Shown piece after piece: positions 42,690 through 43,616 of a stretch of DNA of 64,000 nt (position 1 is its first letter; every line of letters starts with the position of its first letter). Below the pieces are notes generated by a model. That model worked only from the letters and a program-made list of their open reading frames with translations, made no database searches and was not told where the DNA came from. The stretch is from Candidatus Sulfomarinibacter sp. (GTDB lineage: Bacteria > Acidobacteriota > Thermoanaerobaculia > Thermoanaerobaculales > Sulfomarinibacteraceae). The stretch lies in assembly GCA_041560205.1 (NCBI GenBank), contig JBFFBV010000002.1:22278-86277 (forward strand). The letters are read 5' to 3'. A program made the translations under genes and the position numbers.

Positions 42690-43616
42690 TCAGGGGCGGC
42701 TCCCTCGATAGACCTTCAGAAGCCCCTTCCTCTCCATTTCGTCGCGAAGTTGGCCGTCGAAGTCGGTCGAGTGGAAGCCGTCCGCATCGACTGATTCGTC
42801 CTCGTAATACCGGTCCCAACGACCCTTGGCGTCGGCACCGAAACCGAAGACGGCGACCTCGTCGCAGACATGGAGGGCGACCATCAACGCGATGAAGCCG
42901 GTCGAGGGTTACTGGCCTCGGCCCCCGGTCCAGTCTTCGCGGAGGTACTTGACGAACTCCGGATGGAGGAGCCGGACGCTGTCGGAAACCCAACCGAAAC
43001 CGCCCACGAGCGTCTCGATGCGGTCGAACACGTCGCTCACGTTCGACACAACCGGGTTCATCAGGAGAACTGCTCCGAGGTCGTACTGCGTTTCCTCGAG
43101 CTCACGCGGCCACATGACGTGGTGGGTTGTTCTTTCCCCGACATCGTCCTCGAATCCACCCGTTCGTGCACGATTCACCCGGAAAACGAGATCATGAGCA
43201 TCGATGAGGTCGCCGTATGGTGACTCGAGCAGGTTGCGGGAGGCGCCGACAACCGCGCAGAGCCGCTTCTCATCGTCATCCGGAAGGACTGGCGCCTCAC
43301 TCGTGAAGCGTTCGAAAGCCTTGGCGGCTGCCTGCGGCGTCAAATCGGCGCGATCGTCGGGTGCGACGAGGAGCTTCCACCACTCGAGCACCTCCTGCGA
43401 AACCCAGCCGTCGCTCGATTCCCAGAACAGGTCGACGCCGATTCTGAACGAGTCGGGGCAGGCCGACGCGAGCCGGCGCTGAAGGTGACCCCGGATCGAG
43501 GTCTTGAAATTTTGATCGTGAAACGGGGCCGCTGCGATGCCGACCTAGGCGACGACCCACGACGGCACGAGGAGGAACTGCAATAGGAAGACACGCCCAA
43601 TCGACGCTCTCAACAC
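42690..43616 (-). pseudogene. GT29 (eukaryote-type, ST3Gal-like) sialyltransferase with two in-frame stop codons
   Basis: One frame from GTG 43616 carries a hydrophobic N-terminus, sialylmotif L ([10 protein letters not shown]...[11 protein letters not shown]...DVGERTT), S (PSTG...HVCDEVAVFGF), III-like (RYYE) and VS-like (HSTDFD). Stops are TAG 43545-43547 and TAA 42909-42911. Confidence 0.85.

Follow-up and report, generated by a model that had tools for sequence, protein, structure and literature searches.

Analysis of a 64,000-nucleotide stretch of DNA from Candidatus Sulfomarinibacter sp. (hereinafter, the window) revealed a pseudogene copy of a bacterial glycosyltransferase of the GT29 family, the nearest characterized relatives of which are the animal sialyltransferases ST3Gal1/2. 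The sialyltransferases of this family are considered to be, in essence, enzymes of the eukaryotic Golgi. The window copy belongs to a clade that is the nearest bacterial relative of ST3Gal1/2 found in this analysis, and its value is that of a pointer: itself a probably recently dead member, it leads to a GT29 family and to a small gene island that also encodes a membrane transporter of the EamA/DMT type and a radical-SAM protein. In the literature available to us, no study was found that deals with GT29 in Acidobacteriota or Thermoanaerobaculia, or with a link between GT29 and EamA. Taken as a whole, the explanation that we favor, combining the pseudogene, the island and a periplasmic mechanism in intact relatives, appears moderately probable. 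The features of the locus, in window coordinates, are as follows.

40424..41440, plus strand: birA-like biotin ligase, a core gene forming the left flank of the island
41672..42616, plus strand: intact 10-helix EamA/DMT transporter, a member of the island and of the GT29-linked DMT subfamily (PF00892, E 4e-16; in the genus, 3 of 25 genomes have an ortholog)
42690..43616, minus strand: GT29 (ST3Gal1/2-like) glycosyltransferase pseudogene of 308 codons with two in-frame stops, identified by PF00777, pig ST3Gal-I and fold
42756..42773, minus strand: sialylmotif VS (HSTDFD, within FHSTDFD), with the catalytic-base His present and the final Glu replaced by Asp
42801..42812, minus strand: position of sialylmotif III (RYYE, within WDRYYE), with Arg instead of the catalytic-acid His of ST3Gal1
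42837..42908, minus strand: sialylmotif S (PSTGFIALMVALHVCDEVAVFGFG), with the second invariant Cys
42909..42911, minus strand: second in-frame stop, TAA, codon 236, at the Tyr that precedes sialylmotif S and corresponds to the acceptor-binding Y266 of human ST3Gal1
43110..43268, minus strand: sialylmotif L region (KRLCAVVGAS...FRVN...HHVMW), with an invariant Cys and the CMP-binding Ser and Asn (residue roles from PMC6884586)
43545..43547, minus strand: first in-frame stop, TAG, codon 24, one base from CAG; Q in 82 of 123 relatives
43548..43616, minus strand: putative N-terminal export signal of 23 codons, with a positive start, a hydrophobic core and the end ...VVA, aligning with homolog N-termini that end in ..AAQ or VAQ
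43676..44674, minus strand: intact radical-SAM/SPASM gene belonging to the island, immediately upstream of GT29 and in the same orientation as the pseudogene (3 of 25 genomes have an ortholog)
44942..46882, minus strand: dsbD, a core gene (24 of 25 genomes) at the right flank, outside the island

The minus-strand segment 42693-43616 (and also 42681-43676), read with X at the stops, forms a single collinear frame of 308 codons that starts with GTG at 43616, with GGAG located 4 bases upstream, and ends with TGA at 42690-42692; this frame joins the open reading frames 42909-43391 and 42690-42887 and the sequence up to 43616, as the initial annotation had read them. The read-through translation matches the Pfam profile PF00777 (Glyco_transf_29) with 158.2 bits (E 3.6e-46) over profile positions 12-271 of 272, and each of the two frames does so by itself, 42909-43391 with 93.5 bits (E 1.9e-26) and the tail 42690-42887 with 54.9 bits (E 1.1e-14). 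The curated cut-off of this profile is 23 bits, and the GT29 match is far beyond chance. Among solved structures compared by sequence, pig ST3Gal-I is the closest (E 4e-39), followed by ST6GalNAc2 (4e-16), ST6Gal1 (2e-8) and ST8Sia3 (2e-7), and the best named matches outside the clade are animal ST3Gal1/2 proteins, with 37-46% identity. The AlphaFold model of the window protein (pLDDT 82.7, pTM 0.82) led Foldseek to the same enzyme: the best matches are 2wml, 2wnf and 2wnb, all pig ST3Gal-I (E 4e-20, TM 0.72-0.79), with ST6GalNAc2, ST8Sia3 and ST6Gal1 next in rank and the GT42 enzyme CstII at merely E 2e-4. Both the GT29 assignment and the special likeness to ST3Gal I/II proposed from the sequence at the outset are thus borne out by profile, sequence and fold comparison. 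The intact GT29 paralog of the same genome is without a matching model in NCBIfam.

All four sialylmotifs named in the initial annotation are present, L as CAVVGAS...FRVN, and S, III and VS as given in the list above. Residue conservation was counted over 123 other members of the clade. The cysteines of motifs L and S (C142 and C281 of human ST3Gal1), which had been noted as retained, are indeed there in the window copy, and 122 and 123 of the 123 relatives, respectively, have them too; a further Cys, located three positions ahead of the one in motif L (C139 of human ST3Gal1), occurs in all 5 animal rows of the alignment and in none of the 21 bacterial rows. The catalytic-base His of motif VS is present in the window copy and in 122 of 123 relatives. 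The two departures from the eukaryotic motifs had been read correctly and turn out to differ in kind. The DR in motif III is a rule of the clade, the window copy and 111 of 123 relatives having Arg at the H299 position (His in the other 12) and the next Tyr being retained; this rules out a change from HH to DR as a sign of decay. The final Asp of motif VS belongs to the window copy alone, all 123 relatives having Glu, and the E321Q mutant of human ST3Gal1 retains part of its activity (PMC6884586).

The clade is diverse and patchily distributed. In metagenomes it comprises 132 protein clusters with 47-63% identity to the window copy, and the two named public records recovered for it carry the titles Thermoanaerobaculia and Candidatus Sulfomarinibacteraceae. 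In the genus of the window, the GT29 family is present in 3 of 25 genomes; in the phylum sample the count is 2 of 401, the 400 genomes sampled having added a single weak match only. The gene lies in a 3.5 kb accessory island, between birA and dsbD, that consists of the EamA/DMT gene, 1-4 copies of GT29 and the radical-SAM/SPASM gene. The orthologs of all three are found in the same 3 of 25 genomes, the control gene dsbD being present in 24, and RR, birA and dsbD lie side by side in all four GT29-less genomes that were examined. The island is accessory, carried by a minority of the genomes of one marine-sediment genus. In the metagenomes, an EamA or radical-SAM ortholog lies beside GT29 at 14 of 19 loci. 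With a G+C content of 0.635, the locus is no different from the remainder of the window. Two further candidates at this locus were rejected: dsbD is not a functional partner of the island, being a core gene that abuts birA where the island is missing and lies ~42 kb from the island in one genome (G015), and the 21-nucleotide motif found in both flanking intergenic regions is no specific evidence of an insertion scar, being a member of a dispersed family with 46 matches across the genome. The radical-SAM gene has no NCBIfam match over the cut-off, and its best solved relatives are BtrN (5e-7) and DesII (6e-4). In the ESM Atlas, this protein and the DMT (as a generic EamA protein) fall into generic family clusters only.

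The association of GT29 with the transporter extends beyond this phylum. In genome records of Cyanobacteria, Elusimicrobia and Rickettsiales, an EamA gene is located beside, or fused to, GT29 at all three loci; two more GT29-EamA fusions were found (P0129 and P0290), along with a separate natural fusion of GT29 to a Pfam Nuc_sug_transp domain (P0289). A search for longer fused forms yielded one distant protein, which is weak evidence. The GT29-linked DMTs match each other with E values from 1e-14 to 1e-40, as against at least 0.004 for matches to eight other EamA paralogs of the genome. When the genome contigs were searched with an alignment of these DMTs, four loci were recovered, all of them beside GT29, two of the four having been rows of the query alignment. 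At the level of Pfam, the window DMT matches EamA (PF00892) only, with no match to the nucleotide-sugar transporter profiles PF04142, PF08449 and PF03151, and the Rickettsiales partner DMT has a sub-threshold match to TPT (E 0.014). In the Rickettsiales locus, two GT29 genes and the EamA gene adjoin genes for NeuB, a cytidylyltransferase and a DegT aminotransferase, a neighborhood that ties the GT29-DMT module to CMP-activated ulosonic acids. A predicted complex of the island DMT with the mature GT29 domain (residues 45-322) scored 0.00, which speaks neither for nor against binding.

As to the sugar donor, NeuB was not found in the genome of the window, which is 93% complete; it is encoded in 7 of the 25 genomes of the genus and in one of the three that carry GT29, although at the 93-95% completeness of the latter its absence from the remaining two is not proof of absence. 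The single CTP_transf_3 gene of the window's genome encodes KdsB (292 bits against a cut-off of 193), the sole CMP-ulosonate synthetase found. Because NeuB was not found and KdsB is present, CMP-Kdo, or a derivative of it, is the likeliest donor in this genus, ahead of CMP-Neu5Ac, and the earlier suggestion of a different donor is plausible. Replacement of three donor-contact residues of ST3Gal1 across the clade (N147, Y191 and H299; see below) also bears on the donor. Since one GT29-bearing genome has NeuB, a nonulosonate donor is possible as well.

Export signals and membrane topology were assessed with simple heuristics of our own. By these measures, 119 of 124 clade members have an N-terminal hydrophobic core, 115 have preceding K/R residues, and 103 have a site with small residues at -3/-1. 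The hydrophobic segment that had been described as an N-terminal anchor resembles, in the majority of relatives, a signal for export that would be cleaved off; in the window copy it is cut by the TAG. In all seven GT29-linked DMTs, the K/R residues are concentrated on the loops opposite the termini (2-7 versus 10-18), a charge bias that would place a C-terminally fused GT29 domain outside the cytoplasm. Among the eight EamA paralogs of the same genome, the bias is reversed in the four with 10 predicted helices (11-18 versus 3-5); of the other four, two (with 9 predicted helices) lean to the N side, one has 8 versus 8 and one gave a single helix. Together, the export signals, the invariant cysteine pair and the inverted charge bias of the DMT suggest a periplasmic enzyme that is fed by the transporter.

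Under the mechanism that we propose, a Sec signal or signal-anchor would export the enzyme in intact relatives, placing in the periplasm a catalytic domain held by the predicted invariant disulfide of the family; the dedicated DMT would carry the CMP-activated donor over the inner membrane, and the radical-SAM enzyme may modify the sugar. The conjunction of an exported periplasmic GT29, a DMT that carries a CMP donor, and CMP-Kdo or a derivative as the most likely donor is plausible, if a little short of probable. In eukaryotes, the Golgi CMP-sialic acid transporter supplies the donor to the Golgi sialyltransferases. A more far-reaching and rather tentative idea, which we consider somewhat unlikely, is that the GT29 + DMT module, known from four bacterial phyla and in some cases encoded as a fusion, is the bacterial counterpart of the Golgi pair of transporter and lumenal sialyltransferase, such that the dedicated transporter would export a CMP-ulosonic acid and a disulfide-bonded, nucleotide-sugar-dependent glycosyltransferase would use this donor in the periplasm. 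We know of no nucleotide sugar in the bacterial periplasm, nor, to our knowledge, has a periplasmic nucleotide-sugar-dependent arrangement of this kind been described for bacteria.

The enzyme might instead act on the cytoplasmic face of the membrane, where CMP-sugars are made, with the DMT exporting the product or flipping a lipid-linked acceptor. Such a placement would conform to precedent, given that all bacterial Leloir-type sialyl- and Kdo-transferases of inner-membrane pathways known to us act in the cytoplasm, and would fit the assignment of the DMT by Pfam to generic EamA. Furthermore, relatives in the DMT/SMR group are known to move glycolipids (PMC9574504). What makes the cytoplasmic location unlikely in our assessment is the same set of observations on the protein sequences that points to the periplasm: the positive residues that precede the hydrophobic core of the N-terminal signals, indicative of export of the domain; the charge bias that puts a C-terminal fusion outside in every GT29-linked DMT and is opposite in the four ten-helix paralogs; and the invariance of the cysteine pair that forms a disulfide in the eukaryotic enzymes.

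The initial annotation had offered two origins for the gene, a transfer between eukaryotes and bacteria or a little-studied bacterial GT29 clade. The second is upheld by the 132 clusters and the 3 of 25 genomes. For the first, phylogenetic trees were built from the best 150 representatives of one search; the trees are unrooted and leave out other GT29 families. In both trees, the clade is recovered as a single group (support 99) that falls outside the deuterostome set (support 95), at an unresolved fork with sponge and amphioxus groups; on this sequence evidence, the clade is not inside vertebrate or deuterostome ST3Gal1/2. A topology in which all prokaryotic GT29 are apart from the named animals is not rejected by the AU test (delta lnL 8.2, p 0.346). 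A recent capture of an ST3Gal1/2 gene from an animal or other eukaryote, with the anchor and the disulfide inherited from the source, would agree with the animal proteins being the best named matches outside the clade, with ST3Gal-I being far ahead of the other solved GT29 enzymes, and with the patchy distribution in the genus and in the phylum sample; the anchor and cysteine pair kept here are reported to be missing from proteobacterial GT29 (PMC5811610). We nevertheless consider such a transfer quite unlikely, in view of the position of the clade in the trees, the outcome of the AU test, a G+C content equal to that of the surroundings, the absence of the ST3Gal1/2-specific disulfide cysteine from the bacterial rows, and the deep diversity of the clade, with 1-4 tandem copies per locus. 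Moreover, GT29 loci in three further bacterial phyla have DMTs of the same subfamily as the DMT partner, which speaks for a long history in bacteria.

The clade as a whole might also be non-catalytic, comprising binding proteins or pseudo-enzymes. Three donor-contact residues of ST3Gal1 are replaced clade-wide (N147 by Ala or Pro in 123 of 123 members, Y191 by Trp, and H299 mostly by Arg; roles from PMC6884586), and in human ST3Gal1 the H299A mutant is inactive and N147S is much weakened (PMC6884586). Judging from these positions, the Arg of motif III and the Ala at N147 could reflect altered or lost catalysis throughout the clade. A complete loss is very unlikely, however, considering that the catalytic-base His, the VS Glu (123 of 123), the cytidine-stacking Trp, Ser148, Asn170 and Ser/Thr268-269 are kept and that His occupies the H299 position in 12 members; we infer that Arg can still stabilize the leaving phosphate.

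Unlike its intact relatives, the window copy is a real pseudogene, broken by two single-base nonsense changes, the TAG at a site that is mostly Q and the TAA at a site that is mostly Y (Y in 78, F in 41, L in 3 and I in 1 of the relatives). The TAG truncates the export signal where cleavage would be expected; the next start codon in frame, GTG at 43391, would yield a 160-residue product without the signal and without motifs S, III and VS. The TAA is also present in contigs from other public runs, X16 (42846-42975, no differences) and X17 (42435-43261, one difference, at 42601), and the TAG in a contig from X18 (43426-43721, no differences), so the stops are not an error of a single assembly. 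A contig from run X8 contains the entire stretch without change, although X8 may be the source of the window DNA. Contigs drop rare variants, and an intact minority allele could escape a comparison of this kind. At conserved columns (at least 95%), the window copy departs at just 3 of 73 (median 1 and maximum 7 for the clade), so the inactivation is probably recent. That the gene is functional, the stops being sequencing errors, read through or recoded, is extremely improbable: the remaining frame is well conserved, as the small number of changed columns attests, but the same stops recur in the other contigs, they differ in codon, and both the neighboring genes and the paralog elsewhere in the genome are uninterrupted under code 11. 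This paralog is an intact GT29 gene on another contig (C39), and the transferase of the island being dead in this genome, any remaining activity would come from it.

The existence of a bacterial clade with an anchor, disulfide cysteines and a DMT partner makes the origin of the Golgi arrangement of transporter and transferase testable with cloned genes, and the same clade makes it testable whether bacteria glycosylate in the periplasm from nucleotide sugars. The gene island hints that some bacteria may add such sugars outside the cytoplasm, in a Golgi-like manner; if the counterpart idea is true, the GT29 + DMT module would be a candidate source of the eukaryotic arrangement.

Compared with known systems, the clade shares with vertebrate ST3Gal-I/II the same fold (TM 0.72-0.79), a full-length sequence match (E 4e-39), motifs L, S and VS, the L-S cysteine pair, the catalytic-base His, the cytidine-stacking Trp and the PSTG signature. 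Both have an N-terminal hydrophobic segment, which in the clade is directly followed by the catalytic domain, without a long stem. The clade differs in being bacterial, in lacking the Cys three residues before the L-motif Cys, in having Arg, Ala and Trp at H299, N147 and Y191, in its placement by the trees outside the deuterostome group and, in the case of the window copy, in the two stops. Plant GT29-like proteins, which act on rhamnogalacturonan-II and for which transfer of Kdo or Dha has been proposed, are similar in being GT29 members of organisms that have no sialic acid pathway; in the genome of the window, NeuB was not found and KdsB was. Petit et al. 2018 write of 'a shift in the function of GT29 ST to the transfer of Kdo' (PMC5811610). 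Lst of Neisseria gonorrhoeae (GT52), a cell-surface enzyme that uses external CMP-Neu5Ac, is unlike the clade in its CAZy family and fold and in having no linked DMT. This bacterial sialyltransferase is reported to transfer Kdo too (PMC8092323). Petit et al. 2018 also present prokaryotic (proteobacterial and archaeal) GT29 homologs as a possible source of the eukaryotic family and describe the proteobacterial ones as having neither a transmembrane segment nor the L/S disulfide cysteines; the present clade has both, and the word Acidobacteria is absent from the main text and two supplementary files of that paper (PMC5811610). With respect to the Golgi pair of SLC35A1 and a lumenal GT29, the bacterial transporter differs in matching EamA only and in having its termini predicted on the transferase side; the two systems are alike in that a DMT-superfamily transporter is genetically coupled to a GT29 and in that the GT29 domain is predicted to lie across the membrane from CMP-sugar synthesis.

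The frame at 42690-43616, which the initial annotation had read from the sequence alone as a eukaryote-type GT29 resembling ST3Gal I/II, is indeed a GT29 of this kind by profile, sequence and structure comparison, and belongs to a bacterial ST3Gal1/2-like clade, of which it is a pseudogene copy whose inactivation is probably recent. The features concerned (window positions unless a contig is named) are the following.

41672-42616, + strand: EamA/DMT transporter gene, from the gene order of the window
42690-43616, - strand: GT29 frame, from GTG 43616 to TGA 42690-42692, 308 codons in a single frame
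43545-43547, - strand: first in-frame stop, TAG, codon 24 of the GT29 frame
42909-42911, - strand: second in-frame stop, TAA, codon 236 of the GT29 frame
43676-44674, - strand: radical-SAM/SPASM gene, from the gene order of the window
7965-8981 of locus L009, on contig C39 of the same genome (G000): intact GT29 paralog, flanked by LolA-like and IF-2B-family genes

The frame is preceded by GGAG 4 bases upstream of GTG 43616 and is collinear with its homologs, with zero frameshifts. The read-through matches Pfam Glyco_transf_29 over profile positions 12-271 of 272 (E 3.6e-46), and both stop-separated fragments match the profile individually. By sequence, the closest solved structure is pig ST3Gal-I (E 4e-39, residues 66-303), followed by ST6GalNAc2 (4e-16), ST6Gal1 (2e-8) and ST8Sia3 (2e-7). 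An AlphaFold model of the read-through, built with X at both stops and a 26-row alignment (mean pLDDT 82.7, pTM 0.82), retrieves with Foldseek three pig ST3Gal-I entries as top matches (E 4e-20 to 3e-19, TM 0.68-0.79), then ST6GalNAc2, ST8Sia3 and ST6Gal1, with the bacterial GT42 enzyme CstII far lower (2e-4).

Both stops are real. The stretch 42400-43900 is near-identical in contigs of at least 17 public runs, which come from some 11 metagenome studies of sediment, marine and soil samples; four of these runs were aligned for the stop check: the X16 contig covers 42846-42975 with 0 differences and the X17 contig 42435-43261 with 1 (at 42601), both keeping TAA, and the X18 contig covers 43426-43721 with 0 differences and keeps TAG; in X8 the whole stretch is unchanged, but this run is possibly the source of the window's DNA. 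Because contigs mask rare variants, an intact minority allele may exist in the population. Among the relatives, the residue at the TAG position is Q in 82/123 and that at the TAA position is Y in 78/123 and F in 41/123, so that, by our own codon reading, each stop appears to lie one base from the commonest sense codon. The TAA stands at the Tyr immediately before sialylmotif S, the equivalent of which in human ST3Gal1, Y266, binds the acceptor GalNAc according to PMC6884586. The first in-frame start past TAG, GTG 43391, would yield a product of 160 residues that lacks the signal as well as motifs S, III and VS. Of the 73 columns with conservation of 95% or more among the other 123 clade members, the window copy deviates in 3 (other members: median 1, maximum 7), one of these being the final Glu of motif VS, which is Asp here and Glu in 123/123 others. 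Apart from its stops, the copy is hardly decayed, and we read it as a recently inactivated pseudogene.

A word-indexed search returned 132 protein clusters at E<=0.001; among the 120 listed, identity to the query is 47-63% and PF00777 is found in every one. The members are almost all metagenome-derived, and automatic annotation already names them GT29: many carry the JGI label 'beta-galactoside alpha-2,3-sialyltransferase (sialyltransferase 4A)', and one entry at NCBI is named 'MAG: glycosyltransferase family 29 protein [Thermoanaerobaculales bacterium]'. The second, intact gene lies on C39 of the window's genome (4.68 Mb, 184 contigs, 93% complete), and the family is present in 3/25 genomes of the genus, namely this genome and two relatives, G003 and G015, each with an intact tandem pair. 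The 16 sister-family genomes searched yielded none; in an even sample of 401 phylum genomes, the family appeared in the window's genome and otherwise as a single weak match (E 1e-4), and a clade-alignment scan of one genome per bacterial or archaeal species returned two loci, titled 'Candidatus Sulfomarinibacteraceae bacterium' and 'uncultured Thermoanaerobaculia bacterium'. The C39 paralog is solitary, with EamA and radical-SAM genes absent within 8 kb; it and its nearest relative, P0046, retain His at the motif III position. In another member, P0049 (431 aa), an N-terminus resembling the start of the island radical-SAM protein precedes the GT29 domain, which could reflect a gene-fusing deletion or a gene call spanning both genes.

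The gene order in the window is response regulator (+), birA (+), EamA/DMT (+), GT29 pseudogene (-), radical-SAM/SPASM (-) and dsbD (-), and the identical order, with GT29 present in 1-4 tandem copies, is seen again in G003 and on metagenome contigs. An EamA and/or radical-SAM ortholog adjoins GT29 in 14/19 clade-level metagenome loci (L016-L034), the remaining 5/19 being contigs of 1.1-2.8 kb that carry GT29 alone. Within the genus, radical-SAM orthologs (E<=1e-60) and EamA orthologs (E<=1e-40) each occur in 3/25 genomes, the same three that carry GT29; the dsbD control is present in 24/25, at 68-78% identity. Since 4/4 GT29-less genomes examined lack the block, with response regulator, birA and dsbD as immediate neighbors, and the three-gene block of G015 lies ~42 kb from dsbD, EamA, one or more GT29 genes and radical-SAM form an accessory block of 3.5-4.5 kb. 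Membership of dsbD itself is rejected: it is only a chance neighbor, which adjoins birA where the island is absent. The G+C content at the locus, 0.635, equals that of the rest of the window. The best solved relatives of the radical-SAM/SPASM protein are BtrN (5e-7) and DesII (6e-4), and because both modify sugars there is a hint, but only a hint, that the island enzyme acts on a sugar; no NCBIfam model reaches its cut-off against this protein.

Several further observations pertain to this region. On one metagenome contig of 2777 bases (L019), four or more GT29 segments follow one another head to tail over 2.8 kb. Both island-flanking intergenic regions (41443-41620 and 44767-44895) hold copies of a 21-nt motif family (reference copy 41564-41584), ~90-100 bases upstream of the EamA and radical-SAM starts and oriented as each gene, and the family also occurs at 37693-37713; with 4 matches in the window at <=3 mismatches (0 expected) and 46 in the genome, often paired at a spacing of 33 bases and often close to the ends of contigs, it looks like a REP-like dispersed repeat. 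The dsbD matches in G006, G007, G011, G012, G014 and G015 contain 1-2 in-frame TGA codons each, with none in the window's genome; these could represent selenocysteine, sequencing errors or read-through of the upstream region.

The association with DMT transporters extends beyond this lineage. An exhaustive HMMER search gave 2653 matches at E<=0.001 in a library clustered at 50%, which reduces the clade to a few representatives; below these comes a gap, and then matches at 37-46% identity, the next ten comprising six named as animal ST3Gal1/2 or ST3Gal1/2-like (from manatee, fishes and amphioxus, with the organism name incomplete for one), one catfish-genome protein lacking a named function, two unnamed proteins and an EamA-GT29 fusion of 574 residues (P0129). 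A further metagenomic GT29 group of ~300 residues (alignment A3) led to three named genome records, in 3/3 of which GT29 is linked to EamA: EamA, GT29, GT29 in Cyanobacteria; a 545-residue EamA-GT29 fusion followed by GT29 in Elusimicrobia; and, in Rickettsiales (L063, 3842-9663), GT29, GT29, EamA and NeuB, opposite which the other strand encodes a cytidylyltransferase fused to a formyltransferase domain and a DegT aminotransferase. Judged by its gene content, the Rickettsiales cluster is a nonulosonic acid gene set, and looks like a complete locus for synthesis, activation and transfer built around GT29. A third fusion, P0290 (560 residues), is 31% identical to P0129. The GT29-linked DMTs match each other at E 1e-14 to 1e-40 (23-38% identity) but score no better than E 0.004 against the eight other EamA-family paralogs that the window's genome encodes. 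Scanning in the reverse direction, from the DMT alignment, is a weak test: it returned 4 loci, all with GT29 alongside and already known, 2 of them being rows of the query alignment, from which the search patterns also derive. A metagenomic protein of 607 aa, P0289, combines a divergent N-terminal GT29 domain lacking the L-motif Cys with a C-terminal Pfam Nuc_sug_transp domain (PF04142), a natural fusion of a sialyltransferase-like domain and a nucleotide-sugar transporter.

Signals and topology were called by simple rules. Upstream of the conserved domain, 119/124 members have a hydrophobic core, preceded by K/R in 115/124, and 103/124 have a small-residue -3/-1 site near the core end; many N-termini resemble textbook Sec signals ending in ..AAQ or ..VAQ, and a subgroup including the C39 paralog has a longer signal-anchor. 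With either form, the catalytic domain is predicted to lie outside the cytoplasm. The two cysteines at the positions of the invariant family disulfide, C142-C281 in human ST3Gal1 (PMC6884586), are retained in 122/123 and 123/123 members. In 7/7 GT29-linked DMTs, with helix boundaries transferred through their alignment, K/R residues concentrate on the loops opposite the termini (10-18 vs 2-7 on the termini side), so that, by the positive-inside rule, both termini are predicted to be periplasmic, and a C-terminally fused GT29 would therefore be periplasmic as well. The bias is reversed (11-18 on the termini side vs 3-5) in the 4/8 other EamA paralogs with ten predicted helices; two with nine predicted helices share the lean of these four, one is unbiased (8 vs 8) and one has only 1 predicted helix. 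The side predicted for the fusions is also the one that the signals of the free-standing enzymes indicate.

Three positions that touch the donor in ST3Gal1 carry other residues across the clade. ST3Gal1 N147 corresponds to A in 104 clade members and to P in 19, Y191 to W in 123, and H299 to R in 111, with H in the other 12; according to PMC6884586, these residues bond the CMP phosphate, bond the C7-OH of Neu5Ac and serve as the catalytic acid, respectively. S148, N170, S268/T269, W297, Y300 and H316, the catalytic base, whose roles are described in the same paper, are kept. The clade would thus comprise active CMP-sugar transferases whose donor pocket has changed. In the window's genome, KdsB (NF003952, 292 bits vs cut-off 193) is the sole CTP_transf_3 gene. 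NeuB is the synthase family for all nonulosonic acids; it was not found in the window's genome (93% complete) or in G003, is present in G015, and occurs in 7/25 genomes of the genus with no relation to GT29. From these gene inventories, the donor in this genus is most likely CMP-Kdo. The NeuB matches in G015 (C1:779549-780164), G001 (C3:596318-597015) and G021 (C33:11544-12273) are split over adjacent frames, and these genes may be frameshifted or broken.

The FastTree (141 rows) and IQ-TREE quick (70 rows x 307 columns) trees agree; they draw on the best 150 representatives of one search, with no other GT29 families as outgroup and with several long branches. The clade forms one group (support 99) and falls outside a 21-member deuterostome-type group (support 95), in a polytomy-like fork with sponge, amphioxus and ST3Gal1/2 groups, the enclosing cluster being weakly supported (82); other prokaryotic GT29 groups branch outside this cluster. 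In the AU test, separation of all prokaryotic rows from 12 named animal rows is not rejected (delta lnL 8.2, p 0.346).

Full-text searching of a limited literature collection turned up no paper that treats GT29 in Acidobacteriota or a link between GT29 and EamA, and, as far as our searches reach, the clade is familiar to annotation pipelines yet undescribed in the literature. The copy in the window is itself inactivated; what gives it interest is the eukaryote-like build of its family and the family's conserved, sometimes fused DMT partner, which together make a Golgi-like glycosylation step in the periplasm a concrete, testable hypothesis. The prokaryotic GT29 enzymes described by Petit et al. 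(2018; PMC5811610) come from Alpha-, Gamma- and Epsilonproteobacteria, and from Archaea as well; Acidobacteria, EamA and periplasm are absent from the text and two supplementary files of that work as searched. There, the proteobacterial and archaeal enzymes are stated to lack a transmembrane domain and the L- and S-motif cysteines, whereas the clade described here keeps both cysteines (122/123 and 123/123).
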